A model generated the notes under the pieces. The model was not told the origin of the DNA and did not search any database. It saw nothing but the letters and a program-made list of their open reading frames with translations. Positions 708 to 39,682 of a stretch of 64,000 nt of DNA are shown here, one piece after another. Positions within the stretch are counted from its first letter, which is position 1. Every line of letters starts with the position of its first letter. A program made the position numbers and the translations under genes. The stretch is from Chitinophagales bacterium (GTDB lineage Bacteria > Bacteroidota > Bacteroidia > Chitinophagales > JADIYW01). Location of the stretch: assembly GCA_017984135.1 (NCBI GenBank), contig JAGNZZ010000003.1, positions 74,660 through 138,659 of the forward strand, written 5' to 3'.

Positions 708-917
708 ATGAAAAAGAAAAATTTGTTTACCGTATTAGGACTAATGATTACCATTAGTTTATCTTCTTGCGTAAAAGATTGGAAATGTGAATGTACTGAT
801 GGCGTACATACTGAGGTTATGGCAATTTATCCTGATTCGAAAATGAAAGATGCTAAAAAATCATGTGATGATGTGGATGCGGCATTGGGTTCAGGTGTAA
901 GTTGTAAATTAAAATGA
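708..917 (+). CDS. Small Cys-rich lipoprotein, 69 aa
   Basis: Signal peptide ending in the lipobox-like LSSC. The mature part has four further Cys. A strong hairpin terminator follows directly. Confidence 0.55.
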   Translation: MKKKNLFTVLGLMITISLSSCVKDWKCECTDGVHTEVMAIYPDSKMKDAKKSCDDVDAALGSGVSCKLK

Positions 918-931
918 TGATTCATTTGTTT

Positions 932-967
932 AAAAAAATCCGAAACATTTATTTCGGATTTTTTTTT
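932..967. terminator. Bidirectional rho-independent terminator between convergent genes
   Basis: Stem ATCCGAAA (938-945) pairs with TTTCGGAT (952-959). An A-run lies upstream and a T-run downstream, so it reads as hairpin plus U-tract on both strands. Confidence 0.7.
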
Positions 968-2447
968 AATATGCTCTTGCAAATAATACACGTTCTTTGC
1001 TAGGTTTGCCTGTCAAGACGCACTTGCCATCTTCCAAAGGATTGTCTAGTGGAATACAACGAATCGTGGCTTTTGTCAGTTCTTTTATTTTCTCTTCGGT
1101 TTCTGCGGTTCCATCCCAATGGGCTAAAACAAAACCAGATTTTTCATCCAATACTTTTTGGAATGTTTCAAAATCTTCCACTTTCGTAATCTTGGAATCA
1201 CGGAACGACTTTGCCTTGTTGAACATATTTAGTTGGATGTCTTCTAACAAATTAGCAATTGTATCACTTAGGTTTTCTACAGGAATTTGAGATTTTTCTT
1301 TTGTATCTCTTCGAGCCATTTCTACCATTCCATTTGCTAAATCACGTGGTCCGATAACAATACGCAACGGAACACCTTTTAATTCATATTCTGCAAATTT
1401 AAATCCAGGTCGTTTCGTTTCATCACTATCCACCATGGCACGTATGCCCATTTTTGCCAAATCAGCCTTTAATTCATTGGCTTTGCCAATCATGCTATTG
1501 GTTTCTTCCATATTTTTAGATAAAAACGGAATTATAACTACTTGGTAAGGTGCAATTCGTGGTGGAAGCACCAAGCCATCATCATCGGCATGAGCCATAA
1601 TTAAAGCACCAATCAAACGAGTGGAAACACCCCAAGAAGTAGCCCAAACATATTCTTCTTCATTTTCTTTATTTTTAAAAGTAACTTCAAACGCCTTTGC
1701 AAAATTTTGTCCTAGAAAATGAGACGTGCCGGACTGCAATGCTTTTCCATCTTGCATCATAGCTTCAATGGTATAGGTATCTTCGGCTCCAGCAAAACGT
1801 TCGCTTTCAGATTTTACGCCTTTTATAACTGGCAATGCCATATAATTTTCTGCAAAATCAGCATATACATTAATCATTTGAATCGTTTCTGAAATGGCTT
1901 CTTGTTTAGTGGCATGTGCTGTATGACCTTCTTGCCATAAAAATTCAGCTGTTCGCAAAAATAAACGAGTACGCATTTCCCAGCGAACTACATTTGCCCA
2001 TTGGTTGACCAAAATGGGTAAATCTCTATAGGATTGAATCCATTTCTTGTAGGTATTCCAAATAATTGCTTCAGAAGTTGGACGAACGACAAGCTCTTCT
2101 TCTAATTTTGCTTCCGGATCGACCATTAACTTGCCTGGCTCAGCTGGATTGGCTTTTAATCTATAATGTGTCACTACGGCACATTCTTTAGCAAAACCTT
2201 CCGCGTTTTTTTCTTCCGCTTCAAATAAACTTTTAGGTACAAACAATGGAAAATACGCATTTAAATGTCCGGTTTCTTTAAATTTTTTATCTAATACGTC
2301 GCGCATATTTTCCCAAAGGCTGAAACCATAAGGTTTAATGACCATACAACCACGTACTGCTGAATAATCTGCCAATCCACTTTTTAAGACTAAATCATTG
2401 TACCATTCCGAATAATTCTCACTTCTACTTGTTATTTCTTTGCTCAT
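966..2447 (-). CDS. proS: Prolyl-tRNA synthetase (archaeal/eukaryote-like class II type, as in Bacteroidota)
   Basis: 493 aa. The N-terminal block [38 protein letters not shown] and the C-terminal ...RVLFARAY are characteristic of this ProRS subtype. Confidence 0.95.
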
Positions 2448-2506
2448 CGTTGTTTTGCTTATTGAATTCTATAAATTTTAACGTTTTTTGGTATGTTTTT
2501 TGAAAC

Positions 2507-2514
2507 TAAATTTG
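2507..2514 (+). promoter_or_regulatory. Candidate Bacteroidota -7 promoter box (TAnnTTTG)
   Basis: TAAATTTG lies 60 nt upstream of the ATG at 2575. This is a motif match only. Confidence 0.3.
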
Positions 2515-2574
2515 TATAATTTTAGTTTATCAAATGTAAGGCATTTTATTTTGTCACAAAATTAAACATCTATC

Positions 2575-3594
2575 ATGAAAAATTTAGCGTTACTTCCGTT
2601 TATATTTTTTAGCTTATTTATAAGCAATACTGTCATAGCCAATGATGATGTGTATGACAAACCTATGCAAAAAAAAGAAAAAGTAAAAAATACCTATCGA
2701 GAAACAACACCAACCAATTCGGCACCTGCGGAAGTAGAGAAAACAGTTCCATATCAAGAAGTAGAAACTACTAATACAAATAGAACCTACAACGACAACG
2801 ATGATTATAGCAATTCGAATGAGTATTACAGCAATGATTACAGCTCAGATTTTGGATATTCCAATAGAATAAGGAGATTTCACAATCCATCTATCCGATT
2901 TAATTATAGTTATGGATGGAATAATTATTACGATCCTTACAGTTCATACAACCAATTATTTGGATGGAATGACTGGAATTCTTATGTATTTACACCTAGT
3001 TGGATGCATAATTATTCTAACTTCTACAATCCATTTTGGAGCTCAGCTACAATAATTTTCATTCAACCAGGATTTAATAGCTGGTATAATTCTGGTTATT
3101 ATTCACCATGGAATTCTTGGAACAATTGGAACTACAATTACGGATTTTCACCATATTGTAATAATATTATTTACAATAATTATTACAATGGACATCCTCA
3201 GCAGCATCATTATGGAAATTATGGCGACAATAATTATTCCAATAAAAATATTGTAAACACACCACGAACGGGAACTTATTCAAATACACCCAGTAACAAT
3301 AACAACAATAACTCAACTAATTCGAACAACAACAATGGTGGTTGGAATGTGAATAACAATTCTAATTCCAACAATACTACAACAACTAAATCCAACAAAT
3401 GGACAGATAAAAAAGATACAGATACGCCAAAAAATAATGGAAATAATGGCTGGAGTAATCCGTATAAAAATAACAATACGAACAGCAATAATGGAAACGA
3501 AAATTATTCCAAACCTTCTAATAATAATGGAAATTGGAACAACAATAACTCAAACAATAATAGTGGAATAAAAATTGGTTCGCGTCCAAAATAA
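2575..3594 (+). CDS. Secreted low-complexity Asn/Tyr/Trp/Ser-rich protein, 339 aa
   Basis: N-terminal signal peptide (LLPFIFFSLFISNTVIA). A central aromatic/Asn region (WNNYYDPYSSYNQLFGWNDWNSY...) is followed by a C-terminal poly-Asn/Ser/Thr/Gly tract. By hand count about 85 of 339 residues are Asn. Confidence 0.75.
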   Translation: MKNLALLPFIFFSLFISNTVIANDDVYDKPMQKKEKVKNTYRETTPTNSAPAEVEKTVPYQEVETTNTNRTYNDNDDYSNSNEYYSNDYSSDFGYSNRIRRFHNPSIRFNYSYGWNNYYDPYSSYNQLFGWNDWNSYVFTPSWMHNYSNFYNPFWSSATIIFIQPGFNSWYNSGYYSPWNSWNNWNYNYGFSPYCNNIIYNNYYNGHPQQHHYGNYGDNNYSNKNIVNTPRTGTYSNTPSNNNNNNSTNSNNNNGGWNVNNNSNSNNTTTTKSNKWTDKKDTDTPKNNGNNGWSNPYKNNNTNSNNGNENYSKPSNNNGNWNNNNSNNNSGIKIGSRPK

Positions 3595-3613
3595 TCATTA
3601 CACATTTTACAAC

Positions 3614-5110
3614 ATGCGCAAACAAGTACTTTTATATAGCTTGCTATTTATTCTTGTATCAACATTACAAGCACAAACCGATATTGATGCCTTACGATAT
3701 GCCACGCCCAATGTGCAAGGAACCGCACGCAATGCGTCTGTTGGAAATACGATGGGAACGATAGGTGCTGAAATCAGTGCGCTTTCTACCAATCCTGCAG
3801 GCATAGGCAAGTTCAGTTCTACTGAATTTTCAATCACACCAGCTATTTCAATTAATAATACATCAGCAGATTACTTAAACCAATCACAAAAAACGTCAAA
3901 AGTAAATTTTCAGCTAAATAACTTAGGTGTTGTTATTTCGAGCAGATATGCAAATACATCTGCCGCAAAAAAATGGAATGGGCTTAAATTTGGTTTTGCT
4001 ATTAATAGACTGGCAAATTTTAATGAAAAATATTATTTCGGTGGATTAAACAGTCAAAATAGTCTTTTAACCTCTTATGGTGATTTACTAAAAGATAGAT
4101 CGATTATACAATCAGAAGAGGATGCAAAAACAAAATATCCATTTGGAGCAAGCATTGCCTATCAATTAGGATTAATCACATCAGATTCCGTTGGAAATAT
4201 TTATGTTGCAACCGATAGTGCCACGATGCAACAAGATTTTACAATAAGCAGAACTGGAGGAATTAATGAATTAGCCATTGGTGTTGCGAGTGTATATAAT
4301 GATAAAATTATGTTGGGTGCTTCCATCGGAATCCCTTTTTTAAATTATACAGAACGCATTCTTTTACAAGAGACAGATGCCTTACACACGATTGATGATT
4401 TAAATAATTTTTCAAACTTAAATTACTTAAAAACGCGTGGTGTTGGCTTTAATGTAAAAGTGGGAATTATAGGAATGCCTATACAAAATCTAAGACTATC
4501 TTTATCCTTGCAAACACCTGGAATTTTATTTATGCGTGATGCCTATTTAACCAGTATGGAAGTAGATTATGCTAGCTTAAGCGAAATTCTTACGGGCGAT
4601 TCACCAGATGGAAATTCAAGATATAAATATGTACAACCTTGGAAATTAAATGCCGGTGTTGGATATATACACAAATTTGGATTTTTAGCAGTAGAATATG
4701 AATTAAGCGATGCAGGAAATTCAAAGTTTAAATTCAACTTAGACGATATCTCCACTAAAATGTATGAAAATAGTGTAAATACTAGCATTAAAGGCAAATA
4801 TGGATTATTTCACACCATAAAATCCGGTGTTGAATTCAAATATAAATCGGTGCGATTTAGAGGTGGCGTACAATATAGAACCTCGCCATTTAAAAGTGCC
4901 GCAGCACCTACCAATATTACTACATCGAGTTTAACTTATTCTGCAGGAATAGGCTATAGAGGCACACGATTTTTTATAGATTTTGCTTATCTTCAAACGC
5001 ATAACAAAGAAATTTTTGTTCCTTACACAACGAATGCAGGAAATGTTCCATCAGCAGTTTTAAGCGTAAAAAAACCAGCTATTTTGTTAACTGTAGGATA
5101 TAAATTATAA
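3614..5110 (+). CDS. FadL/OmpP1-like outer-membrane beta-barrel protein
   Basis: Start moved to Met14 (MRKQVLLYSLLFILVSTLQAQ signal peptide). The N-terminal plug-like motif is DALRYATPNVQGTARNASVGNTMGTIGAEISALSTNPAGIG. Alternating beta-strand pattern throughout, ending ...LLTVGYKL. Confidence 0.65.
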   Translation: MRKQVLLYSLLFILVSTLQAQTDIDALRYATPNVQGTARNASVGNTMGTIGAEISALSTNPAGIGKFSSTEFSITPAISINNTSADYLNQSQKTSKVNFQLNNLGVVISSRYANTSAAKKWNGLKFGFAINRLANFNEKYYFGGLNSQNSLLTSYGDLLKDRSIIQSEEDAKTKYPFGASIAYQLGLITSDSVGNIYVATDSATMQQDFTISRTGGINELAIGVASVYNDKIMLGASIGIPFLNYTERILLQETDALHTIDDLNNFSNLNYLKTRGVGFNVKVGIIGMPIQNLRLSLSLQTPGILFMRDAYLTSMEVDYASLSEILTGDSPDGNSRYKYVQPWKLNAGVGYIHKFGFLAVEYELSDAGNSKFKFNLDDISTKMYENSVNTSIKGKYGLFHTIKSGVEFKYKSVRFRGGVQYRTSPFKSAAAPTNITTSSLTYSAGIGYRGTRFFIDFAYLQTHNKEIFVPYTTNAGNVPSAVLSVKKPAILLTVGYKL

Positions 5111-5132
5111 GTATCTTAGCAAGAAAATATCC

Positions 5133-5783
5133 TTGCAAACAACCACTACTTGGAAATGGAAATTAGCTCAAACCTTAGAATATAAATGGTGGGAGAATTA
5201 TTTAAAAAACAAAAATACACAAGAATATTTAGATTGGAAATTAACATATTGGGATAAGCTAATATTTTCCATCACACCATATTTTGAATTTCCTGAAAAC
5301 AAAAGAATACTCGATGCAGGTTGTGGTCCTGCTGGCATTTTCATGGCATTAAAAGGAAACCAAGTGGATGCGTTAGATCCATTAATAGAAAAATACAAAT
5401 CTCTTCCTCATTTTCTGCCACATGCTTTTTCATGGACGCAATTTAATGCCATTGCCTTAGAAGACTTGCAAGCTGAAAACACATACGATTATATATTTTG
5501 TATGAATGCCATTAATCATGTCAATGATATCAATAAATGTTACGACAATTTAGTACGAGCATTAAAACCGAATGGAATACTAGTGATTTCTACTGATGCA
5601 CATAAACATTCTTTTCTAAAAAAGATTTTCCAATTGATTCCTGGAGATGTTTTACATCCTATTCAACATAATTTACAAGAATACAACCAGTATTTAACCG
5701 AAAGAAATTTGAGCATCCTAAAAGATATTTTATATAAAGAAGAATTGATTTTTGATTATTATATTACGATAGCTAAAAAATAA
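5133..5783 (+). CDS. Class I SAM-dependent methyltransferase
   Basis: Motif I ILDAGCGPAG, with downstream DYIFCMNAINHV and LKPNGILVIS blocks. The ORF as given starts on TTG, and no in-frame ATG lies near the 5' end. Confidence 0.8.
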   Translation: MQTTTTWKWKLAQTLEYKWWENYLKNKNTQEYLDWKLTYWDKLIFSITPYFEFPENKRILDAGCGPAGIFMALKGNQVDALDPLIEKYKSLPHFLPHAFSWTQFNAIALEDLQAENTYDYIFCMNAINHVNDINKCYDNLVRALKPNGILVISTDAHKHSFLKKIFQLIPGDVLHPIQHNLQEYNQYLTERNLSILKDILYKEELIFDYYITIAKK

Positions 5784-5789
5784 AATTGG

Positions 5790-6698
5790 ATGGAAACATA
5801 CTTAAAAAGTTATGAGTTACACTCTAAAACTTATAAAGATATAGATAAAAATAAAGCTCAAAAATGGGTAAATGAAGACACTGTCGATTATTGGAGACAT
5901 AATCGGATGTATAATACATTGTTGCCTATTCTAAATAACTATCCAAACGCTAATTGGCTAACTATTGGCGATGGAAGGTATGGAACAGAAGCTCATTATC
6001 TATTAAAATACACTTCTAATGTATTAGCTACAGATATAGCAGAAGATTGTTTAAAAGCGGCAAAAGAAGAAGGTTTTATAACTAATTATAAAATTGAAAA
6101 TGCTGAAAATTTAACTTTCGAAAATAATACTTTTGATTTTACTCTTGTTAAGGAAGCCTATCATCATTTTCCAAGACCAATTATTGCTTTATACGAAATG
6201 CTACGTGTATCTAAAAAGGGTATAATCTTGATTGAACCTAATGACCAAAATTGCACTTCTCCTCAAAAGTTTAGTATAAATGAATCTCTATTTTGGTTAA
6301 AAAACAGCATAAAAAGTAGGATAAAAAATTTATTAGGTAGAGAGCGTTATTATGAACAAGGTAATTATGAGCCTTCCGGCAATTATGTTTACACAATTTC
6401 TGTAAGAGAAATTGAAAAAATTGCCTTAGGTTTAAATTACGATTTGATAGCTTTTAAAGGATTAAACGATCATTACATTAACGGAGTCGAATTTGAATTA
6501 TGCTCTGATAATGGCCCTTTATTCAAAGAAGTAAAAAAAGTTATAAAAGAACAAGATCGCGATGTAGAAAAAGGCAAACGTGTATGTGGTTTATTAACAG
6601 CTTTTATTTTCAAAGAAATGCCTAATAATGCATGCATTCAACAAATGGAAAAAGATGGTTTTAAGATAATTAAATTAAACAAAAATCCATATTTATAA
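5790..6698 (+). CDS. Class I SAM-dependent methyltransferase (second, different subfamily)
   Basis: Blocks WLTIGDGRYG, ATDIAEDCL, FDFTLVKEAYHHF and SKKGIILIEP fit the methyltransferase type 11/12 layout. It starts 6 nt after the previous gene. Confidence 0.75.
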   Translation: METYLKSYELHSKTYKDIDKNKAQKWVNEDTVDYWRHNRMYNTLLPILNNYPNANWLTIGDGRYGTEAHYLLKYTSNVLATDIAEDCLKAAKEEGFITNYKIENAENLTFENNTFDFTLVKEAYHHFPRPIIALYEMLRVSKKGIILIEPNDQNCTSPQKFSINESLFWLKNSIKSRIKNLLGRERYYEQGNYEPSGNYVYTISVREIEKIALGLNYDLIAFKGLNDHYINGVEFELCSDNGPLFKEVKKVIKEQDRDVEKGKRVCGLLTAFIFKEMPNNACIQQMEKDGFKIIKLNKNPYL

Positions 6699-6699
6699 T

Positions 6700-7983
6700 T
6701 TACTCCACTATAACCAAACTATAATCTTTCTTACCTTTTTTCACAACGATATACTTTCCATTAATTAAGTTATCTGAATTGATTATTCCGTTTACATCTG
6801 TATATTTATCTAAATTAATGGCGATTCCATTGGCACTTACTAATTTACGAGCTTCGCCTTTAGATGCAATTATTTGTGTTTCTTGTGCCAGCAAATCCAA
6901 GACATTTACGCCGCCAGAAATTTTATCCTTTTCTATTTTAAAAATGGGCACGCCTTCAAAAATATCTATAATTTGAGCATCGTTTAATTGTGCTAAATTT
7001 TCTTTTGTGGCTTTTCCAAATAATATTTCTGAAGCTTTTTGAGCTTGTTCTAAATCTGTTGCACTATGCACACGTATGGTAATTTCTTCCGCTAAAGCTT
7101 TCTGTAATATACGCAAATGCGGTGCTTCATTTTGTTGTGATTCCAAGGCTTCAATTTCAGTTTTATTTTTCATAGAAAACACGCGAATCCAATTTTTTAC
7201 ATCTTCATCGGCAGCATTTAACCAAAATTGATAAAATTTATATGGTGATGTTTTGGCTGCATCTAACCAAATATTGCCGGCTTCACTTTTTCCAAATTTA
7301 GTTCCATCTGCTTTTTTTATAAGTTGAGTAGTTAAAGCATACGCTTCGCCTTCGCCATTTGTTTTTCGGCGAATTAATTCTGTTCCGGTCACAATATTTC
7401 CCCATTGGTCACTGCCACCTAATTGTAATTTCACGCCATTGTTTTTCCATAAATGGTAAAAATCGTATCCTTGAATTAATTGGTAACAAAATTCAGTAAA
7501 CGACATGCCATTTTCCAATCGGTTTTTTACTGAATCTTTGCTCATCATGTAATTTACGGTAATATGTTTTCCTGTATCGCTGATAAAATCTAAGAAAGAA
7601 AAATTCTTAAACCAATCGTAATTATTTACTATTTCGGCCGCATTTGCGCCACAATTAAAATCCAAAAACTTTTCTAATTGTTTTTTTTGGCAAGATAAAT
7701 TATGTTGCAATAAATCTTCAGTCAACATATTTCGTTCCGTGCTTCTTCCACTTGGATCGCCTACAATTCCGGTTGCGCCACCTACTAAAGCAATCGGTTT
7801 GTGACCACAACGTTGAAAATGCAATAAGGTCATTACTTGTACCATGTTTCCAATTCCTAAGGAATCTGCCGTAGGATCGAAACCGATATATCCTTTTACA
7901 CTTTCTTTGTTTAATAAATCTTCCGTTCCAGGCATAATATCATGCAACATGCCGCGCCATTTTAATTCCTCAACAAAATTCAT
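6700..7983 (-). CDS. tyrS: Tyrosyl-tRNA synthetase, with a non-canonical HIGH motif
   Basis: 427 aa with [15 protein letters not shown]..., [18 protein letters not shown] (the KMSKS equivalent) and a C-terminal S4-like domain. The HIGH position reads GIGN. Confidence 0.93.
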
Positions 7984-8000
7984 TTCTAATTATTTTGGTG

Positions 8001-8008
8001 CAAAAATA
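8001..8008 (-). promoter_or_regulatory. Candidate -7 promoter box for tyrS
   Basis: Plus-strand CAAAAATA equals TATTTTTG on the minus strand, about 18 nt upstream of the tyrS ATG. Confidence 0.35.
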
Positions 8009-8176
8009 CAAAATTGTAAAATGGTTTAAATGGTGTATTTGCCTATTTTTTCTATATTTATTGAAGATGCAACGAAAATTGTCAATACATTATCTATATA
8101 TTAAGAGAAAAATGGATAAATTTACGTAGTGTATTGTATGGAACAATGCGCATTAAAACTGAACCGTTTATATTGC

Positions 8177-9376
8177 ATGATAAATTTACAAAAGTCTAAG
8201 TTTTTAATCTTTACTCTATTTTGTTTCACAATAAGTTTTCCTTTTGCGAAGCCACCAAAATACAGTAATGATTTTATGTACATTGGAGTAGGTGCACATA
8301 ATTTTGGCATGGGCAATGCGGTGGTCGCCACTACGAACGATATCACTGCCGGATATTGGAATCCAGCTGGCTTAGTGCGTATTCCAACTAATTTACAATT
8401 TAGTTTCATGCATAATGAATATTTTGCTGGATTAGCCAAATATGATTATGCTGGTATTGCCTTTCCATTAGACAGCAATAAACACGCCATTGGTATTAAT
8501 TTTATGCGTTTCGGTGTAGATGATATTCCATATACGTTGGATCTAATAGAACCTGACGGAAGCGTAAATTATGATAATGTTAGAAATTTTTCTGTAGGTA
8601 ATTATGGTATTTTATTATCCTATGCATATCAAATTATTCCCAATTTATCGGTTGGAGCAACTACAAAAATCGTACATAATAAAGCAGGAAGTTTTGCTAA
8701 ATCTTGGGGTTTTGGTATTGACATTGGTGCGATGTATAAGATTAAAGATTGGCAAATCGGTATCACCGTGAAAGATATTACAACTACATTTAATGCTTGG
8801 TCCTATAATTTTACAGATAAAGAAAAAGCAATATTAGCCGACACGAGCAATGTGATTCCCAAAAACTCAACAGAAATTACCTTACCTAGAATTCAATTTG
8901 GTGTAGCCTATACTAAAACATTTAAAGATAAAATTGAATTAAAAGCTGAATTAGATTGGGAAATTACAACAGATGGTCCACGCAACACGCTTATTTCTAC
9001 AAAAAAAGTTAGCATGGATCCAAGAATTGGAATCGAGTTAGGCTTGTGGAAGATATTCTATATTCGTGGTGGAGTAAGCAATTTTCAAAAAATGTTAAAC
9101 TCCGATGGCAAGAAAACTTTTACCGTACAACCAAATCTTGGAGCTGGTTTCCGTTTTAAAAATATAGTATTTGTAGATTATGCCTACACTGATATTGGCA
9201 AAGCATCTGAAAGTCAATTTTCACATGTCGTATCTTTAAAACTTGGCATCAATAAACGAAAAAGAAAAGAAGCCGCACAGCTAATTAATGCTACAGAGCC
9301 AACTATAGAAAGTGCACCAACTACAATACCTTCTGATGTTCCGGTTGATACACCTTCTGAACCCATTCAAAAATAA
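8177..9376 (+). CDS. PorV/PorQ-family (FadL-like) outer-membrane barrel with a C-terminal Pro/Thr-rich tail
   Basis: Start moved to Met17 (signal-like FLIFTLFCFTISFPFA). Diagnostic N-terminal motif YIGVGAHNFGMGNAVVATTNDITAGYWNPAGLVRI. Beta-strand periodicity throughout, and the gene sits immediately upstream of a C25 peptidase gene. Confidence 0.6.
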   Translation: MINLQKSKFLIFTLFCFTISFPFAKPPKYSNDFMYIGVGAHNFGMGNAVVATTNDITAGYWNPAGLVRIPTNLQFSFMHNEYFAGLAKYDYAGIAFPLDSNKHAIGINFMRFGVDDIPYTLDLIEPDGSVNYDNVRNFSVGNYGILLSYAYQIIPNLSVGATTKIVHNKAGSFAKSWGFGIDIGAMYKIKDWQIGITVKDITTTFNAWSYNFTDKEKAILADTSNVIPKNSTEITLPRIQFGVAYTKTFKDKIELKAELDWEITTDGPRNTLISTKKVSMDPRIGIELGLWKIFYIRGGVSNFQKMLNSDGKKTFTVQPNLGAGFRFKNIVFVDYAYTDIGKASESQFSHVVSLKLGINKRKRKEAAQLINATEPTIESAPTTIPSDVPVDTPSEPIQK

Positions 9377-9382
9377 TTGACA

Positions 9383-12300
9383 ATGAAAAAATTTTTACAT
9401 ATTATCTGTTTAATGGGATTTTTTTCCATCTGTCATGCACAGCAATACGGCAATGAATGGATAGATTATTCAAAAACATATTACAAGTTCAAATTAGGAA
9501 AAACAAGCCTTTATCGAATCACTTATTCATCTTTAATCAATTTAGGCATTCCTAATAATCAATTACGTGGTACCAATTTTAAATTAATTCGCAACGGAAA
9601 AGAAGTTCCGTTATATGTAACCACGAATGGTCCATTCGGAGCTGCGGATTTTATTGAATTTTATGGAGAAAAAAATGATGGTAAACCGGATTCATTATTA
9701 TATAAAAATCCCGAAGACCAACCTCATAATAAGATAAGTTTATTTACTGACACGGCAGTTTGTTTTTTAACCATTGATCCATTTAGCATTAATGCTCGTG
9801 TCACCCAACAAACCAATGATTTAAGTTCTATTCCTATACCGGAAAAATTCTGTTACTATTCCATTTATTTTACTGGAACAGGTTTATATAGAGGTTTACC
9901 TATTTCATCAAATTTTAGTCAATTATACAATTCTGATTTTGACAAAGGCGAAGGACATAGCTTAGGCGTCATTGCGCCAGGCACACAAACTTTTGTTGGA
10001 TTTAATACCCATTTTGTCTATAAAGAACCGTCGGTGAATGCGTATTATTATGCCAATTATGTATTACCAGAAGGCAGCCAAAACATTAGAGTTACCTATA
10101 ATGCATTTGATACCACTGATATTAATTTTGGGCCGATGGTGAAAAAATCGGTTTATACCGTAAACAGTATGAATCTAAGTGAAGGTGGATGGGCAAGATT
10201 CTATTTCGATGCACCGAGAATTATTCCAAGGCTGAATCCATTTTTAGCCGGTGTTGAACTTCAATATCCAAGGCTCTTTAATTTTAATGGACAATCAACT
10301 ATTAATTTTAGTTTTAGAAAAACAGATGATCTCTATTTTGAAATTAAAAATTTTGATGCACAATCTACTGCACCAATTTTATACGATTTAAATAATAATC
10401 AACGTTATGAAGGTATTACAGATACGGCTCTTAAATTTCATTTATTTGCAACTGCGTTAGAAAAAGATAAATTATATCTATCTTCTCAATCTTCAACCGA
10501 CATTCCAACTATATCATCTTTTACACCTACCAATTTTACAAATTTTTTAAGTGCATCGCCAGGTTCTGGCGATTACATTATTATTTCTAATAAAAAATTA
10601 AAAGCAAGTTTATCAGGAACTGATTTTGTAGAAGAATATAGGAAATATCGATCCTCCACTGCTGGTGGAAATTTTACTGCCAGAACATATTTCATCGATG
10701 AATTATACGATCAATTTGGTTTTGGAATTATAGAAAATCCGTTAGCTATTCGAAATTTTGTAAATTTTGCTTTGGATAATTTTACTATTAAACCAAAAAT
10801 GGTTTTTGTTATCGGAAAAGGATTGGATTATTCTAAAATGTACAGAAATCAAGGATTAATCAACAAAAGCCTTGTGCCTACTTTTGGGGAACCGGCATCG
10901 GATAATCTATTAACGGCAAGAAGTAGCAGTTTAAATTATCCTCAAATCGGTATCGGAAGATTGTCCGTAAAAAATGGAGATGAAATTAAAGCATATTTAG
11001 ATAAAGTAAAAGATTATGAAGCAATTTTGAATGACACTATAAATGCATCATTAACTCCATACAACAAATCATGGATGAAAAACATATTACATTTGGGTGG
11101 TGGAAACAATAATTTTGAACAACAAATAATACGGAACTATTTAGATAATTATAAAACTACAATTGAGGCGCCAAAATATGGTGGTTCTGTGAGTAGCTTA
11201 TTTAAAAACACAACTGATCCTATTCAAATTGCTCAAAATATATTTTTAGATTCCTTAATCAATTCAGGCGTTTCTTTAATCACCTTCTTTGGGCATTCTG
11301 CCACCACCACCACCGATTTTAATTTGGAGCCGGAACGAATGTCTAACTATAGAAAATATCATCTGATGCTATCAAATGGTTGCTTTATTGGTAGTGTTTT
11401 TGAAGATGCTTCTAATTTATTGAGTGAGCGATTTGTACTATTACCCAACAAAGCAGCAATCGGCTATATTGCTCCAGTTACTTACGCAGTCATCTCAAAT
11501 TTAAATTCTTACTCTTCTTCTTTTTATAATTATTTCTCCAATACTTTATACAATGATGCTATAGGAACCATATTACAAAGAACCTCAAAAGATGTGATTC
11601 TTAGTGGTATCGACATCAATCCATCCATTGGACATCAAATGATTTTTCATGGCGATCCTGGATTGAGAATAAACACACATTTTAAACCCGATTTTTACAT
11701 TGATGAAAGTAGTGTGTCCTTTGAACCACAGAATATCAATGCCGCCGCCGATTCGTTTTTAATAAAATTAATAGTACGCAATTTAGGTGCAGCAGTACCA
11801 GATAATTATATTATTAATGTAGATCGAATTTTTCCAAATGGACAAATTCAAGCAACTAGCGTAAATGTACCAAGCGCCCGTAATATAGATACTGTTCTAA
11901 TATGGATAAAATCAGATCGAATTAATGGCCCTGGATTAAATTCCTTTAAAATAAAAGTGGACTACGCAAATGCTATTGCAGAATATTCGGAATTGAATAA
12001 TGAAATAAACGTCACAAAACTCATTTTGGCGGATGATATTATTCCCATTTTCCCTTATGAATTTTGTATCGTCAACGACGCAAACCATGAGCTTGTATTT
12101 TCGACGGCCAATCCTTTCGCAACACCAAAATCATATATTTTTCAAATTGATACTACTGAAAACTTTAACAGTCCATTATTAACACAATTAAAAACTACAG
12201 CACCTGGTGCCACCATTAAATGGAACCCAACTATTCCTTTAATAGAAAATAAAGTATATTACTGGCGAGGTACATTAGATACAACGGTAGGCAATCCGGC

Positions 12301-14374
12301 AAATTGGAAAAAAAGTTCATTTTTATACAATACATCGCTTTCTACTGGATGGAATCAATCGCATTATTTTCAATATTTACGAAATTCATACAGCACGCTA
12401 AATTTAAAAACAGATCGAGATTTTCATTATCCTAATACGGTAAGAACTTTGCAAATCAGAAATGGAATTATCTATGATCAATTAATTGAAGCATTTTGGG
12501 ATGGCTATCTAATTGCCAGAAATGCATGGGCTCGAAAAGGATTTATTTTCTTTGTGTATGATGCTAATACTGGACAAAATTGGCAAACCTTTCAAATTGG
12601 CAACACATGTCGTGGACCATGGAATGACATCACCTGTAATCGATATCCAATAAATGTCATTGAGTTTATAACCAATGATTTCGCAAATGGAAAAACATAC
12701 CGACAAGATGTTGCCAACTTTATCAATTCTATTCCTTGCAATGCGTATGTAATGGGTTATAGTTTTTATAATGCTGGTTATTCTCAATGGCTCGTTGATA
12801 GTTTAAATGTGGGTGATGCTAATTTATATCAAGCATTTGAAAATTTAGGAGTAACAAAAATTCGCCAACAGCAAGAAAATGCTCCTTTTGTTTTCTTCTT
12901 GCAAAAATGCAATAATAGTTTAGCCCCTATTCAAATACAACGATTTAGTCCGGATATCATCGATACAACTTTTACGTTTAGTGGCTCCTGGAATAAGGGC
13001 AGTATGGAAACGCCTATTATTGGTCCTGCAAGTAGCTGGACAGACTTCCACATGGATTGGCACTCTAAAGAAACACCAACCTCTTTTGATGAAGGTACTG
13101 TAAATTTATACGGCTATGGAATTAATGGCACACGAACTTTATTGAGAACTGATTTGCTTAAAAACAATGTCACTCCGGTAAGTATAGACGCACAACAGTT
13201 TCCATTTTTACAAATGCAATGGCTGACGAAAGACGACTCCATGAGCACGCCTCCACAAATGGATTTTTGGCGATTGTATTATGCAAAAGCTCCTGAAGCC
13301 GTTGTCAATCCTAGCATATATTTTTCAAAAACAAGAGACAGCATTATTTCTGGTGAAAACTTTAATATGTCTGTCGCCGTAGAAAATGTTTCACCAATAA
13401 ACATGGATAGTTTATTGGTGAAATTTATTATTAAAGATGCTTCCGGAAATATTACATCGTTTTATCAACGCTTTGCTCCATTACCCGGAAAATCACATAT
13501 AAATATCGACTTTAATTACACCTTTTCCGGATTTAATTTCTTTGGATTAAATTATGTAACAGTTGAAGTCAATCCGGATGACGACCAAATTGAACAATTT
13601 CATTTCAATAATTTTGCTGAATTTACAGTTTTCATAGAACGCGATAAAATCAATCCACTTCTAGATATTACTTTTGATGGCAGACATATTATTGATGGAG
13701 AATATGTATCTGCAAATCCAGAAATTTTATTCCGTTTAAAAGATGAAAATAAATATTTGGCACTGAATGATACTTCCGGATTTTTAATCTATTTATACTA
13801 TCCCAACAACCCTGAACCTGTTCAGGTTTCTGCCAACAGACCGGACGTAACGTTTATGCCTGCAACCAATTTAAATCTTGGAAAAAATAATGAAGCTCGA
13901 TTGATTTTCAAACCAACATTAGCCGATGGAACGTATGAAATACGCGCTCAAGGAATTGACCGCAGTAAAAATGATGCTGGAAAATATGATTACAGAATAC
14001 AGTTCAAAGTGGATTCTAAACCTTCTATCACGAATGTCTTAAATTATCCAAATCCATTTTCATCTACTACACAATTTGTTTTCACATTAACAGGTGCAAG
14101 CATTCCTGATCAATTAATTATCCAAATATTTAGTGCCTCCGGAAAAGTAGTTAAAGAAATAACACGTGCTGATTTGGGAAATTTACATATCGGTGTAAAC
14201 GTTACGGATTACAAATGGGATGGCACTGATAATTTTGGTGATCGATTGGCAAATGGTGTTTATTTTTATCGTGTAATGACTAAAAATATCGATGGTACAT
14301 CTACTGAAATCAAAGAAAGTTCAATAGATAAATACTTCAAAAAAGGATATGGAAAATTGTATATTTTCCGCTAG
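9383..14374 (+). CDS. Very large secreted C25-family (gingipain/PorU-like) cysteine peptidase, 1,663 aa
   Basis: The ATG at 9383 gives the signal peptide MKKFLHIICLMGFFSICHAQQ. C25 blocks are VIGKGLDYS, VPTFGEPASDNLL, HLGGGNN, catalytic-type His in FFGHS (11294-11296) and Cys in LSNGCFIG (11381-11383). There are CARDB-like modules (NLGAAVPDNYIINV..., FNMSVAVENVSPINMDSL...). The C-terminus is FlgD-Ig/T9SS-CTD-like: NYPNPFSS...YKWDGTDNFGDRLANGVYFYRV. Confidence 0.8.
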   Translation: MKKFLHIICLMGFFSICHAQQYGNEWIDYSKTYYKFKLGKTSLYRITYSSLINLGIPNNQLRGTNFKLIRNGKEVPLYVTTNGPFGAADFIEFYGEKNDGKPDSLLYKNPEDQPHNKISLFTDTAVCFLTIDPFSINARVTQQTNDLSSIPIPEKFCYYSIYFTGTGLYRGLPISSNFSQLYNSDFDKGEGHSLGVIAPGTQTFVGFNTHFVYKEPSVNAYYYANYVLPEGSQNIRVTYNAFDTTDINFGPMVKKSVYTVNSMNLSEGGWARFYFDAPRIIPRLNPFLAGVELQYPRLFNFNGQSTINFSFRKTDDLYFEIKNFDAQSTAPILYDLNNNQRYEGITDTALKFHLFATALEKDKLYLSSQSSTDIPTISSFTPTNFTNFLSASPGSGDYIIISNKKLKASLSGTDFVEEYRKYRSSTAGGNFTARTYFIDELYDQFGFGIIENPLAIRNFVNFALDNFTIKPKMVFVIGKGLDYSKMYRNQGLINKSLVPTFGEPASDNLLTARSSSLNYPQIGIGRLSVKNGDEIKAYLDKVKDYEAILNDTINASLTPYNKSWMKNILHLGGGNNNFEQQIIRNYLDNYKTTIEAPKYGGSVSSLFKNTTDPIQIAQNIFLDSLINSGVSLITFFGHSATTTTDFNLEPERMSNYRKYHLMLSNGCFIGSVFEDASNLLSERFVLLPNKAAIGYIAPVTYAVISNLNSYSSSFYNYFSNTLYNDAIGTILQRTSKDVILSGIDINPSIGHQMIFHGDPGLRINTHFKPDFYIDESSVSFEPQNINAAADSFLIKLIVRNLGAAVPDNYIINVDRIFPNGQIQATSVNVPSARNIDTVLIWIKSDRINGPGLNSFKIKVDYANAIAEYSELNNEINVTKLILADDIIPIFPYEFCIVNDANHELVFSTANPFATPKSYIFQIDTTENFNSPLLTQLKTTAPGATIKWNPTIPLIENKVYYWRGTLDTTVGNPANWKKSSFLYNTSLSTGWNQSHYFQYLRNSYSTLNLKTDRDFHYPNTVRTLQIRNGIIYDQLIEAFWDGYLIARNAWARKGFIFFVYDANTGQNWQTFQIGNTCRGPWNDITCNRYPINVIEFITNDFANGKTYRQDVANFINSIPCNAYVMGYSFYNAGYSQWLVDSLNVGDANLYQAFENLGVTKIRQQQENAPFVFFLQKCNNSLAPIQIQRFSPDIIDTTFTFSGSWNKGSMETPIIGPASSWTDFHMDWHSKETPTSFDEGTVNLYGYGINGTRTLLRTDLLKNNVTPVSIDAQQFPFLQMQWLTKDDSMSTPPQMDFWRLYYAKAPEAVVNPSIYFSKTRDSIISGENFNMSVAVENVSPINMDSLLVKFIIKDASGNITSFYQRFAPLPGKSHINIDFNYTFSGFNFFGLNYVTVEVNPDDDQIEQFHFNNFAEFTVFIERDKINPLLDITFDGRHIIDGEYVSANPEILFRLKDENKYLALNDTSGFLIYLYYPNNPEPVQVSANRPDVTFMPATNLNLGKNNEARLIFKPTLADGTYEIRAQGIDRSKNDAGKYDYRIQFKVDSKPSITNVLNYPNPFSSTTQFVFTLTGASIPDQLIIQIFSASGKVVKEITRADLGNLHIGVNVTDYKWDGTDNFGDRLANGVYFYRVMTKNIDGTSTEIKESSIDKYFKKGYGKLYIFR

Positions 14375-14396
14375 AAAATCAACATAAAAAAGTAGA

Positions 14397-14426
14397 AAAT
14401 GGGACAATAAAATGTTCCATTTTTTT
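14397..14426. terminator. Rho-independent terminator shared by convergent genes
   Basis: AAATGGGACA (14397-14406) pairs with TGTTCCATTT (14413-14422) with one G-U pair. A T-run follows and overlaps the lpdA stop codon. Confidence 0.6.
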
Positions 14427-15816
14427 ATAAATGAATGACTTCACCATAAGCAACCGCAGTAGCTTCCATAATGGCTTCACTCATGGTTGGATGTGGATGT
14501 ACTGATTTTAAGATTTGCAGGCCAGTAGTTTCTAATTTCCTGGCAACTATTATTTCAGCAATTAATTCTGTTACATTTTCTCCTACTAAATGAGCACCTA
14601 ATAATTCTCCATATTTTTTATCAAAAATAAGCTTTACAAAACCATCTGATTTTCCGGCAGCTTTGGCTTTTCCACTTGCCGAAAATGGAAATTTGCCAAT
14701 TAAAACATCCAATTTTTTTCCTCTCGCTTGCTGTTCCGTTAAACCCACGCTTGCCACTTCAGGTGAGCAATATGTACAACTTGGAATATTTCCATAATCC
14801 AAAGGTTGAGGATGATGTCCAGCCATGTGTTCCACCGCAATGATTCCTTCTGCACTAGCTACATGTGCCAATGCTTGTCCTTTTACTATATCACCGATGG
14901 CATAAACACCTTCAATATTTGTTTGATAATATGAATTTACTTTTACCTTATCGTGTTCCGTTTGAATTCCACATATATCCAAGCCAATATTTTCTATATT
15001 AGCTGAAACGCCTGCAGCACTTAGTACAAAATCTGTTTCAAAGAGTTGCTCACCATCTTTTGAATTTACCAATAATTGCACTTTGTCGCCTATTATTTTT
15101 GAGGATAAAACGCGTGAAGAAGTTAAAATATTCATGCCTTTTTTAGAAAAAAGTTTCTCTAATGTCTTGCTGATTTCTTTGTCTTCAATCGGCAAAATAG
15201 AATCCATAAATTCGATTAATGTTACTTCGCATCCCATAGTTTGGTAGAAATAAGCAAACTCTACGCCTATTGCGCCGGCACCAACAATCACCATATTTTT
15301 AGGTAGTTTTTGTAACACCATGGCTTTTCTATAATCAATAATTTTATTGCCATCAATAGGTAGAGATAAAAGTTGTTTAGCACGACCACCTGTGGCCAAT
15401 AAAATAAAATTTGATTTTAAAATTTTAATGCCACCTTCATTTAATGTAATTTCTACACGTTTGCCTGGTAATACTTTTCCATATCCATAAATGACTTCAA
15501 TATTATTTTTTTTCATCAAAAACTGAATACCTTTGCTCATGCCATCTGCTACGCTTCTACTCCTACTGATTACTGCATTGAAGTTTAAATCGGCTGATTT
15601 TATATCAATTCCATATTCGCTTGCATGATTGATGTAATCAAAAACCTGAGCAGATTTTAATAATGCCTTTGTTGGAATACAACCCCAATTTAAGCAAATA
15701 CCTCCTAAATTTTCTTTTTCTATAATTGCCACTTTTAGTCCCAATTGTGCTGCTCGAATTGCAGCAACATAACCGCCTGGTCCAGAGCCAATCACAATTA
15801 AATCGAAATTAGTCAT
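14425..15816 (-). CDS. lpdA: Dihydrolipoyl dehydrogenase (E3)
   Basis: FAD motif VIGSGPGGY, redox-active disulfide GGICLNWGCIPTK, NAD motif VGAGAIGVEF, and C-terminal HPHPTMSE interface motif. Confidence 0.93.
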   Translation of the reverse strand: MTNFDLIVIGSGPGGYVAAIRAAQLGLKVAIIEKENLGGICLNWGCIPTKALLKSAQVFDYINHASEYGIDIKSADLNFNAVISRSRSVADGMSKGIQFLMKKNNIEVIYGYGKVLPGKRVEITLNEGGIKILKSNFILLATGGRAKQLLSLPIDGNKIIDYRKAMVLQKLPKNMVIVGAGAIGVEFAYFYQTMGCEVTLIEFMDSILPIEDKEISKTLEKLFSKKGMNILTSSRVLSSKIIGDKVQLLVNSKDGEQLFETDFVLSAAGVSANIENIGLDICGIQTEHDKVKVNSYYQTNIEGVYAIGDIVKGQALAHVASAEGIIAVEHMAGHHPQPLDYGNIPSCTYCSPEVASVGLTEQQARGKKLDVLIGKFPFSASGKAKAAGKSDGFVKLIFDKKYGELLGAHLVGENVTELIAEIIVARKLETTGLQILKSVHPHPTMSEAIMEATAVAYGEVIHL

Positions 15817-38041: not shown

Positions 38042-39682
38042 TCATTTTATTTTGATTAATTTTTGGCTTACCACATCATCATTTTGTTTAATAGAAATTA
38101 CATATTCACCACTTGGTAAATCTTGCAAATGTTGAATTTCAATTTTATTATTTCCCATATTGCTTTTGCCATTCCATAAAGTTTCCACCATTAATTGTCC
38201 AATTAAATTTTGAATGGTAATGGATGTTGGTTTCATTTCTTTGGCATCAAATTCTACCACAATAGCATTGCTAAATGGATTGGGATATACTTTTAGTTCT
38301 TGAATATTCGAATTATGTTTTATTCCAGATAGCACGATGGAATCTTGTTTAATGATTCTAAATTTATCAAACACATCGCCATTGTCTTTGTAAAAAATTC
38401 CAGTAATTTGCTGATTGTCGATTTCTAAAATCATACTTCCCACTGCATCATTTCCCATATATTTTTTATGCATCACTGGATGCATTTTTCCATTTTCATC
38501 ATCCGATTTGCTGCTGTTTCCAACCACACCATAAACAGTACCTTTGTTTTTATTTGGGCCATAAGTATATTTAATGTAGGTTCTATTGCTATCTGGATTT
38601 CCAGAAGAACTATCGACCATCATGGTTGCTTTATTGAAGGAAGAGGATGCGCCATAATGTTTGTTGATTAAATAGGAACGTTCATATACATGACTGTGTC
38701 CGCATAAAATTAAATCGACACCATATTGTTCCAAAATGGGCACTACTCGTTCACGCATGCTTGCTGAAAAAACTTCCCAAAAATCGTCGGTATCATGTGT
38801 ACCTTTGGAGTAAGGTGCTTGATGCCAATAGGCTACTTTAAATTTTTTATTAGAAGATTGTAAATCATTAATCAACCAATTTTTAAACGTAGTTCCAAAT
38901 AAATCCCAAAGCACCAATACACGATACATTTCTGAATTGAGTGCTAAAAAATGGGTATTGCCATAATCATAAGAATAATAAGCTTCCATGCCTGAAGGAA
39001 CGCCACCCATTTCAGCATTTTTAAATACATCAACTATATCATAATATGGACCACGATGTGTTTGTGGTTCATCGGCACCATTTACACTATTATAATCATG
39101 GTTTCCCGGAATGGGATAAAATGGTAGAAACCTAAAAATGGAATCATAACCATACACCTTATCAAAAACTTTTGTTTGATATTCATAATCGGTTCCGTTG
39201 GTGTAGGCATTGTCGCCCATCCAAAGCCATGCATTAACTTCATTCGATTGTATGTAATTTTGAAACCATTTACGCACTTTTATTTGATTGGTATTTCCAC
39301 TGCCAAAATCGCCGGTTACCCAAAAACGGAAAGGTGTAGTATCGCCCGGATTGATAGCCGTTTTAAAATGATGATGCGCGTCATTTCCTGCCAGCACAAC
39401 GGTATCAAATCCTACACAATAATAGTATGTTGAATTTGAATTTAATCCTGAAATTTGTACTGTGTGGTTTTTAGTCAAAACAGTGTCCACAATAGTATTT
39501 ATTAATGAGGTAGGCGAATGACCATATTTTACTTTACCTATAGTAGAATCGCTGGTACGCCACATAATTTTCACACTTTTGTTCGTCATACTTTGTAAAT
39601 ATGGACCACGCACTAATGTTTGTGCGTGACAAAATTGTATTAAAATAAATAGGATTAAAAATGGGAATAAATACTTCTTCAT
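38042..39682 (-). CDS. Purple-acid-phosphatase-like metallophosphoesterase with a T9SS C-terminal sorting domain
   Basis: Signal peptide and an N-terminal FN3-like PAP domain (LVRGPYLQSMT...IMWRT). Metallophosphoesterase motifs GDFG, GDNAY, GNHD and GHSHVYER. CTD: VYPNPFSNAIVVEF...GEYVISI. Confidence 0.8.
   Translation of the reverse strand: MKKYLFPFLILFILIQFCHAQTLVRGPYLQSMTNKSVKIMWRTSDSTIGKVKYGHSPTSLINTIVDTVLTKNHTVQISGLNSNSTYYYCVGFDTVVLAGNDAHHHFKTAINPGDTTPFRFWVTGDFGSGNTNQIKVRKWFQNYIQSNEVNAWLWMGDNAYTNGTDYEYQTKVFDKVYGYDSIFRFLPFYPIPGNHDYNSVNGADEPQTHRGPYYDIVDVFKNAEMGGVPSGMEAYYSYDYGNTHFLALNSEMYRVLVLWDLFGTTFKNWLINDLQSSNKKFKVAYWHQAPYSKGTHDTDDFWEVFSASMRERVVPILEQYGVDLILCGHSHVYERSYLINKHYGASSSFNKATMMVDSSSGNPDSNRTYIKYTYGPNKNKGTVYGVVGNSSKSDDENGKMHPVMHKKYMGNDAVGSMILEIDNQQITGIFYKDNGDVFDKFRIIKQDSIVLSGIKHNSNIQELKVYPNPFSNAIVVEFDAKEMKPTSITIQNLIGQLMVETLWNGKSNMGNNKIEIQHLQDLPSGEYVISIKQNDDVVSQKLIKIK

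Follow-up and report, generated by a model that had tools for sequence, protein, structure and literature searches.

In the canonical type IX secretion system (T9SS), PorV shuttles cargo from the translocon to an attachment complex of PorQ, PorU, and PorZ, in which the Cys/His peptidase PorU removes the C-terminal domain (CTD) of the cargo and transfers the cargo to anionic lipopolysaccharide (LPS); both PorU and PorZ retain their own CTDs, which serve as tethers to PorV and PorQ, and specific CTD proteins are held by cognate PorV-like barrels (PMC10202324). Here we describe a gene pair from a 64,000-nt stretch of a Chitinophagales bacterium contig (JAGNZZ010000003.1; the whole stretch is hereafter called the window), for which a first-pass annotation had suggested a second T9SS sortase/shuttle module. 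The pair consists of a barrel gene followed by a C25 peptidase gene and, judged from sequence, is a member of the PorV2/PorU2 family already catalogued by NCBI. From homology and from analogy with the canonical system, we think it somewhat probable (roughly 55%) that PorV2 and PorU2 act as a surface sortase module beside the canonical pair, mainly in Chitinophagales. The two genes are arranged as follows:

8177..9376, + strand: porV2, 399 aa, likely ATG at 8177 and stop TAA at 9374-9376 (by reading of the open reading frame, ORF)
9377..9382, + strand: spacer ttgaca, 6 nt from the porV2 stop to the porU2 ATG
9383..14374, + strand: porU2, encoding a 1,663-aa secreted multidomain C25 cysteine peptidase

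Our reading of the ORFs agrees with the gene boundaries first given, i.e. a barrel gene stopping at 9376 and a 1,663-aa secreted protein beginning 6 nt later. The porV2 reading frame is open from 8129, its likely start is the ATG at 8177 (MINLQKSKF...), and the glycine-rich/WNPAG motif originally quoted for the barrel, GVGAHNFGMGNAVVATTNDITAGYWNPAGL, is present in the 399-aa protein. Cotranscription is implied by the 6-nt spacer, and porV2 and porU2 constitute an operon.

Both proteins were compared with the family models of NCBIfam release 20, using the curated equivalog cut-offs, and with Pfam, using the gathering scores. The barrel scored 460.3 bits with the PorV2 model NF052325 ('putative type IX sorting system protein PorV2'; cut-off 325), its residues 17-358 matching model positions 13-353 of 354, and it also cleared the PorV/PorQ subfamily model NF033709 (112.1 bits vs. 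90), whereas it fell far below both the canonical PorV model NF033710 (31.6 bits vs. 250) and the PorQ model NF033711 (65.2 bits vs. 220). Similarly, the peptidase reached 716 bits with the PorU2 model NF052324 ('putative type IX secretion system sortase PorU2'; cut-off 450; residues 5-873 vs. model positions 4-879 of 879) and only 145.7 bits with the canonical PorU model NF033707 (cut-off 420), and its residues 1555-1635 match the type-A T9SS CTD model TIGR04183 (29.3 bits, cut-off 23). Canonical Chitinophagales proteins exhibit the reverse pattern, with 1,199-1,425 bits for PorU on the PorU model vs. 163-196 on the PorU2 model, and ~476 bits for PorV on the PorV model vs. 25-33 on the PorV2 model; on NF033710, genuine full-length PorV proteins of Chitinophagales reach 442-477 bits. 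The pair thus scores as neither PorU, PorV, nor PorQ, and the PorU2/PorV2 labels mentioned in the first-pass annotation do exist as dedicated NCBIfam equivalogs, both of whose cut-offs the two proteins exceed. Since NCBI already names both families and assigns them the same putative function, the idea of such a pair is not novel as an annotation; the earlier interpretation is supported, yet it is not new in that sense. Older public records name the relatives just 'hypothetical protein' or 'C25 family cysteine peptidase'.

PorV2 has a predicted N-terminal signal peptide, MINLQKSKFLIFTLFCFTISFPFA, and weakly resembles F. johnsoniae PorV (6h3i_F) across its N-terminal motif, the pattern G-x-G...AT..D.....WNPA being common to both proteins. 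It also extends beyond the barrel model:

9251..9373, + strand: PorV2 C-terminal tail, 41 aa past the point where the barrel model stops, NKRKRKEAAQLINA and then residues rich in Pro/Thr/Glu

When 70 PorV2 sequences were aligned, a 24-47-aa Pro/Thr/Glu-rich tail following NKRKRKE..ELINA was found exclusively in the clade of the window (L001-L023, L073, and L075), while other members mostly end in a short Lys-rich stub (median tail 9.5 aa over all 70). Thus, the extra tail reported for the barrel is genuine and, unlike the size of the peptidase and the gene order, it is specific to this clade.

The feature most relevant to a sortase function is the catalytic domain of PorU2, in which the following elements were mapped:

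10574-11668, + strand: C25 domain (Pfam, residues 398-762)
11294..11296, + strand: codon of the catalytic His638 (FFGHS), invariant in 75/75 sequences, by profile alignment
11381..11383, + strand: codon of the catalytic Cys667 (LSNGCFIG), invariant in 75/75 sequences, by profile alignment

Pfam Peptidase_C25 (PF01364; clan CD) matches residues 398-762 with 163.6 bits (gathering score 23; E = 1.1e-47), as anticipated from the C25 blocks previously noticed in this 1,663-aa protein. No substitution of the FFGHS Gly-His or of the NGC Cys occurs in any of 75 full-length relatives that are 32-87% identical to the window PorU2. A single-sequence search of the PDB reached just the PorU CTD region and the PorV N-terminal motif, so alignment of the dyad needed a 20-sequence PorU2 profile. 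With this profile, PorU of P. gingivalis (6za2) was the best match at E = 2.5e-14; gingipain R (1cvr and 4ief) was matched with E = 6e-6 to ~1e-5. The His of the PorU2 profile ('ffGHsatt') aligned to PorU YAGHGG and RgpB YTGHGSE, and its Cys ('angCfvgn') aligned to PorU TATCDF and RgpB VACVNGD. We take the aligned RgpB residues to be the catalytic His211 and Cys244 of the literature numbering, the catalytic Cys of PorU presumably being Cys690. The two codons initially singled out as a caspase/gingipain-type dyad therefore correspond to His638 and Cys667 and align to the catalytic dyad of PorU and RgpB.

Outside of the catalytic domain, PorU2 is composed of the following segments, several of which were delimited with AlphaFold2 (AF2) models:

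9470..11725, + strand: PorU-homologous region (N-terminal domain plus C25), residues 30-781, by hhalign
11687..12007, + strand: CARDB-like beta-sandwich domain 1, residues 769-875 (Pfam CARDB 23.3 bits, gathering score 22.7; AF2)
12008..13312, + strand: PorU2-specific insertion, residues 876-1310, a beta-sandwich, an alpha/beta domain, and a beta-sandwich
12311..12973, + strand: FAM3/ILEI-like alpha/beta domain, residues 977-1197, confident from ~1020 (AF2 and Foldseek)
13334..13615, + strand: CARDB-like beta-sandwich domain 2, residues ~1318-1411 (Pfam CARDB 17.4 bits, E = 0.005, sub-threshold; AF2 beta-sandwich)
13640..14371, + strand: PorU-like C-terminal module, residues ~1420-1663, a penultimate beta-sandwich plus the type-A CTD
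14045-14287, + strand: type-A T9SS CTD (TIGR04183), residues 1555-1635

The protein begins with a predicted signal peptide, MKKFLHIICLMGFFSICHA, which precedes QQYGNEW. Pfam gave no match in the N-terminal 400 residues. When the PorU2 profile was aligned with a profile of Chitinophagales PorU by hhalign, residues 30-781 of PorU2 aligned to PorU columns 170-921 (probability 100, E = 5.8e-42, 18% identity), and the alignment ended at residue 781. At the other end, phmmer aligned PorU2 residues 1507-1641 to residues 1014-1145 of PorU 6za2, and the last ~220 residues of PorU2 correspond to the final ~220 positions of the PorU model, as is also evident in a 66% identical PorU2 fragment (L078), the last ~220 aa of which match PorU model positions 875-1086 with 79 bits. 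Since both ends of PorU2 align to PorU, the ~500 surplus residues form an insertion that separates the catalytic from the C-terminal module. Pfam FlgD_ig matches residues 1561-1634 (30.1 bits, gathering score 27); with TIGR04183, both models for the proposed FlgD-Ig/CTD-like terminus are thus above their cut-offs. Of the two CARDB-like modules proposed, the first is just above the gathering score, while the second is below it (17.4 vs. 22.7 bits).

An AF2 model of PorU2 residues 766-1663 (898 residues; predicted local distance difference test, pLDDT, 75) consists of a string of beta-sandwiches and one alpha/beta domain. Foldseek searches with the whole model gave just generic beta-sandwich strings, such as complement C3/C5 and alpha-2-macroglobulin, at template modelling (TM) scores of ~0.1-0.2, and the alpha/beta domain was therefore modelled alone (residues 977-1197; pLDDT 72, predicted TM score 0.69). 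The top 20 Foldseek matches of this domain in the PDB were all either FAM3A/B/C (FAM3/ILEI/PANDER) or the stem/N-terminal domain of POMGnT1, with probability 1.0, E-values of 1e-4 to 1e-2, and target-normalised TM scores of 0.52-0.66 for the domain-sized chains among them. Sequence comparisons agree weakly (Pfam ILEI, E = 0.005; FAM3B, E = 0.15 by profile), and the ILEI label is present in the precomputed annotation of many PorU2 homologues. The stem domain of POMGnT1 is a carbohydrate-binding domain, and we offer a glycan-binding role of the FAM3/ILEI-like domain of PorU2 as a hypothesis only. A search for the insertion among 1.84 billion representatives yielded 1,430 matching clusters, 443 of them at E ≤ 1e-30. 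The best 150 of the 1,430 matches were mostly proteins of ~1,650-1,720 aa carrying the insertion at the same position (~870-1320), which makes the 'oversized' PorU2 the family norm; the shorter proteins among these 150 are probably partial gene calls. Full-length PorU2 relatives measure 1,650-1,730 aa, into which the window protein fits with its 1,663 aa, insertion, and type-A CTD. Accordingly, the peptidase is indeed several hundred residues longer than PorU, as had been pointed out, but its ~1,660 aa are a trait of the family rather than an oddity of this locus. It should be noted that the database cluster representative P0001, although listed as '100% identical', differs from the window PorU2 (9383-14371) at a few residues, e.g. 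L/Q in IDTVLIWIK, S/I in RFSPDII, and S/T in ENVSPIN; therefore, the window is closely related to, but distinct from, the deposited ENA contig.

To place the pair among its relatives, one genome per GTDB species was scanned, which identified 224 relatives, 79 of which were kept as loci. Nearly all 79 are from Chitinophagales, comprising Chitinophagaceae (including Flavisolibacter, Taibaiella, Pinibacter, Paraflavisolibacter, and Chitinophaga) and metagenome-assembled genomes (MAGs) labelled Saprospirales or Chitinophagales. Several PorU2-bearing MAGs (L004, L006, L030, L041, L051, and L069) are labelled Sphingobacteriales, Verrucomicrobia, Bacteroidales, or Flavobacteriaceae. At least the 'Sphingobacteriales' labels of L004 and L006 are unreliable, because their TyrS proteins are 78-81% identical to that of the window. 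A PorV2 homologue is located directly upstream of PorU2 on the same strand in 69 of the 70 related loci that include upstream DNA, and this order spans PorU2 identities from 32 to 87%, with a median gap of ~26 nt (6 nt in the window). Such consistency argues that the adjacency is not due to chance. Thus, the gene order flagged as reversed does differ from that of the canonical pair, but it is shared by 69/70 loci and is not peculiar to this one. The sole exception is L079 (MAG Bacteroidetes bacterium GWA2_32_17), whose PorU2-type gene (10001-14971, 1,656 aa) has a 298-aa opposite-strand ORF at the place of porV2. The only other widely kept neighbour is a divergent tyrS, retained by 47 related loci at TyrS identities as low as 56%, a linkage that amounts to long-range synteny with no obvious functional connection. 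Overall, the window pair is the same as the NCBIfam PorU2/PorV2 family in scores, length, gene order, and domain content; the 24-47-aa barrel tail is the sole addition in its clade, and nothing essential differs.

A second module presupposes a first one, and we therefore examined how canonical pairs are distributed. A first scan with the F. johnsoniae-type PorV motif AT..D.....WNPAK returned 120 loci, 118 of which have a canonical PorV and none of which are from Chitinophagales. In the 61 sampled loci with both canonical genes, porU always precedes porV on the same strand and directly adjacent to it, and the near-complete PorU ORFs of these loci encode ~1,120-1,300 aa, in line with the order and the size of 1.1-1.3 kaa that had been given for this pair. 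A second scan used the canonical-PorU motif [YF]NEFSSG..D..A.R, which is absent from all 75 PorU2 sequences, and it recovered loci from Chitinophagaceae, Saprospiraceae, and Lewinellaceae, in which a 1,240-1,300-aa PorU precedes a ~400-aa PorV. Chitinophagales had escaped the first scan owing to the YWNVAK sequence of their PorV. This is the case in Chitinophagaceae bacterium IBVUCB1 (L240, 970-2163, - strand), where canonical PorV reads YWNVAK and not WNPAK, and the PorV proteins of the Chitinophagales loci L200, L210, and L224 are likewise without WNP. Searching the flanks of the 79 PorU2 loci by tblastn with fragments of PorU from P. gingivalis and of PorV from F. johnsoniae recovered PorV2 itself only, and shared flanking genes gave no placement of canonical-PorU loci in the clade of the window.

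Both pairs occur together in the cultured isolate Taibaiella soli R1-15 (GCA_003236175.1), where they are located on separate contigs, PorV2 (449.8 bits) and PorU2 (665.7 bits) on QKTW01000018.1 and PorU (1,250 bits) upstream of PorV (442 bits) on QKTW01000023.1. The latter contig (L381) encodes, over 2218-11777, an opposite-strand FGE-sulfatase-family gene (GldJ/GldK-like), PorU, PorV, and a 1,091-aa Reprolysin-type metalloprotease with a Por_Secre_tail; hence a T9SS cargo gene lies directly after the canonical sortase pair of T. soli. Within the clade of the window, MAG AMR_MDS_0630 contains the 66% identical PorU2 fragment mentioned above on contig L078 and, on contig L377, a canonical PorU (1,248 bits) with a partial PorV (277 bits) behind it, the two contigs having similar GC content and coverage. 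Because a canonical pair accompanies it in T. soli and accompanies a PorU2 fragment in this MAG, we read the PorV2/PorU2 pair as a paralogous second module rather than as the lineage's sole divergent copy. The proposal of a second pair is thus borne out for T. soli, whereas for the window's own genome second-module status is an extrapolation from these relatives. Duplications of a different kind were seen in other Bacteroidota loci, where two canonical-type PorU genes stand in tandem: L204 (Bacteroidales), L257 (Muribaculaceae), and L238 and L251 (unclassified Bacteroidota MAGs) each have two matches to the PorU motif, and L277 has two PorU-type ORFs at 827-4621 and 4710-8000.

Compared with canonical PorU/PorV (P. 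gingivalis PG0026/PG0027 and F. johnsoniae; PDB 6za2 and 6h3i), the window pair is alike in combining an adjacent PorV/PorQ subfamily barrel with a C25 peptidase, which in both cases is built of an N-terminal domain, a C25 domain with the His/Cys dyad, a penultimate domain, and a type-A CTD. It differs in that the gene order is reversed, both scores are below the canonical equivalog cut-offs, profile identity between PorU2 and PorU is ~18%, the canonical-PorU motif is missing (0/75), and PorU2 bears an extra insertion of ~500 aa with the FAM3/ILEI-like domain, which lies outside of the PorU-aligned segment. PorQ-PorZ is similar in concept, as a PorV-like barrel holds a CTD protein with an uncleaved CTD (PMC10202324), and of the two canonical barrel models PorV2 is closer by score to PorQ (65 bits) than to PorV (31.6 bits), yet still far under the PorQ cut-off of 220. 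Unlike PorZ, PorU2 has a C25 catalytic domain; the PorZ model has no match on full-length window PorU2, and the sole PorZ match of the L078 fragment (29 bits, residues 449-544) overlaps the match of the type-A CTD model. The gingipains RgpB and Kgp (C25, MEROPS clan CD) share the C25 fold, the aligned His/Cys residues, and the status of T9SS cargo with a type-A CTD, but the match of PorU2 to gingipain R is weaker than that to PorU, and the gingipains have neither an N-terminal domain of the PorU type nor a PorV-like barrel gene as a neighbour. Lastly, the PorP/SprF-like proteins described with type-B CTD cargo resemble PorV2 as dedicated outer membrane partners encoded next to an anchored CTD protein (PMC9143113), whereas PorV2 is of the PorV/PorQ family and the PorU2 CTD is type-A (TIGR04183), not type-B.

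If PorV2 and PorU2 do form a sortase module, both would be exported by Sec via their predicted signal peptides, and PorV2 would insert into the outer membrane as a PorV/PorQ-type barrel, as its homology suggests. PorU2 would then cross the outer membrane through the T9SS using its type-A CTD. From the strict synteny and the analogy with PorU-PorV and PorZ-PorQ, we infer a PorU2-PorV2 complex in which PorU2 keeps its CTD and is held at the surface by its cognate barrel. There, the conserved His638/Cys667 dyad may cleave the CTDs of a subset of the cargo, which would be either released or transferred to a surface acceptor. More speculatively, the ~500-residue insertion with its predicted FAM3/ILEI-like fold might position or recognize a glycan acceptor or a class of cargo.

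Several observations weigh against this sortase reading. Neither canonical gene, porU nor porV, is present in the 64-kb window, and any canonical pair of this genome would lie beyond it; no PorZ/PorQ-like partner and no glycan-synthesis or LPS gene is conserved near the pair in the related loci; neither a separate class of cargo nor a CTD subtype emerged; and the PorU2 gene of L079 is without a PorV2 immediately upstream. In addition, NCBIfam itself calls the function 'putative', and no paper in the literature we searched names or describes the PorU2/PorV2 pair; searches for a PorU paralogue, homologue, or 'PorU-like' protein gave nothing relevant, and the two T9SS text matches to 'PorV2' and 'PorU2' proved to be superscripted citation numbers. 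An effector role would suit a large surface protease that has Ig-like and lectin-like domains just as well. The main alternative, to which we give a lower but appreciable probability, is thus that PorU2 is simply T9SS cargo, a gingipain-like surface effector protease or adhesin, with PorV2 as its dedicated anchor barrel in the manner of PorQ for PorZ or of PorP/SprF-like proteins for type-B CTD cargo. In that case, an environmental polymer or a host glycan would be the ligand of the Ig-like and FAM3/ILEI-like domains, and C25 would digest external proteins. For such an effector, a normal type-A CTD, a long beta-sandwich string with a lectin-like fold typical of surface enzymes and adhesins, the lack of PorZ/PorQ-type or LPS genes kept beside the pair, and the known holding of specific CTD proteins by cognate PorV-like barrels (PMC10202324) would all be natural. 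However, the homology of PorU2 to PorU exceeds the shared C25 fold, encompassing the N-terminal domain (residues 30-397), the penultimate domain, and the CTD, and in the PDB it matches PorU best (E = 2.5e-14) and gingipain R less well (E = 6e-6). PorU2 is also single-copy, strictly paired, and length-conserved across hundreds of 50%-identity clusters, which makes it look more like machinery than a fast-evolving effector.

Two further explanations concern the identity of the pair rather than its role. It could be supposed that PorV2 and PorU2 are the divergent sole PorU/PorV of this lineage, an orthologous replacement for which the absence of canonical genes from the window and the failure of the first WNPAK scan to find Chitinophagales among its 120 loci might be cited. 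Yet the YWNVAK sequence of Chitinophagales PorV accounts for that failure, canonical PorU and PorV score far above cut-off in genomes of Chitinophagaceae, Saprospiraceae, and Lewinellaceae, and T. soli R1-15 has both pairs, as MAG AMR_MDS_0630 has a canonical pair and a PorU2 fragment; replacement is already largely refuted and seems very improbable. The barrel could alternatively be a FadL-type channel for nutrients or hydrophobic compounds, its adjacency to a peptidase being incidental. This would draw upon faint Pfam matches to Toluene_X/FadL (PF03349; 18.4 bits over one short stretch vs. a gathering score of 29.7) and TraF_2 (21.7 bits), both under their gathering scores, and it is already refuted by the family scores of 460 bits for PorV2 and 112 bits for PorV/PorQ, quite apart from the N-terminal motif in common with F. 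johnsoniae PorV and the adjacency kept in 69/70 loci. The barrel thus groups with PorV/PorQ and not with the uptake channels, an outcome that the first-pass annotation had left to be checked, and we give this last explanation practically no weight.

The remainder of the window holds further components of the T9SS, which were identified with the same family models:

45038-47914, + strand: type-A CTD protein (family-model scan)
38045-39682, - strand: type-A CTD protein (family-model scan)
53943-55241, + strand: type-A CTD protein (family-model scan)
39744-40208, - strand: GldH (104.7 bits, cut-off 78.7)
58470-61646, - strand: PorW/SprE (442.9 bits, cut-off 250)

All of the T9SS genes previously listed for the window, namely at least three CTD cargos, gldH, and a PorW-like gene, were thereby recovered, a context that favours the sortase reading, and the rest of the window comprises housekeeping genes, other enzymes, and unassigned ORFs. 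The divergent tyrS upstream of porV2 is located at 6700-7983 on the - strand (427 aa; assigned by sequence similarity and reading by eye, with no family-library scan). Farther upstream are two overlapping genes at 2575-3594 (+, 339 aa) and 3575-5110 (+, 511 aa), which recur together at an equivalent position in 16 related loci from the clade of the window. Pfam gave no match in either; the 511-aa protein has a signal peptide and a weak match to a BamG-family beta-barrel (43 bits vs. a cut-off of 250), and the two genes may encode another uncharacterised outer membrane pair. Antisense to the 5' end of porV2 there is a 105-aa ORF with a TTG start (8122-8439, - strand), which has homologues in two related loci and is almost certainly spurious.

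As this locus is an ordinary member of a family already named by NCBI, its value is in pointing to an unstudied system and not in a discovery. To the database label, our analysis adds the coexistence of both pairs in a cultured strain, the strict porV2-porU2 synteny, the assignment of the extra length to a single insertion, and the prediction of a FAM3/ILEI-like fold. PorU2/PorV2 is widespread across Chitinophagales and stands beside the canonical pair in T. soli R1-15, and it offers a clean genetic target of two genes and one catalytic cysteine. As a long shot, PorV2-PorU2 might even be a self-contained two-protein attachment machine in place of the canonical four (PorV-PorU plus PorQ-PorZ), with the FAM3/ILEI-like domain taking the role of PorZ in presenting a glycan or lipopolysaccharide acceptor and a hybrid PorV/PorQ-like barrel taking both barrel roles; the surface glycan to which a defined subset of the type-A CTD cargo is ligated could then differ from that of the canonical sortase. 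More generally, a conserved additional sortase-like enzyme that comes with a barrel of its own is an obvious candidate for partitioning T9SS cargo, i.e. for determining which proteins are released, which are anchored, and to what.

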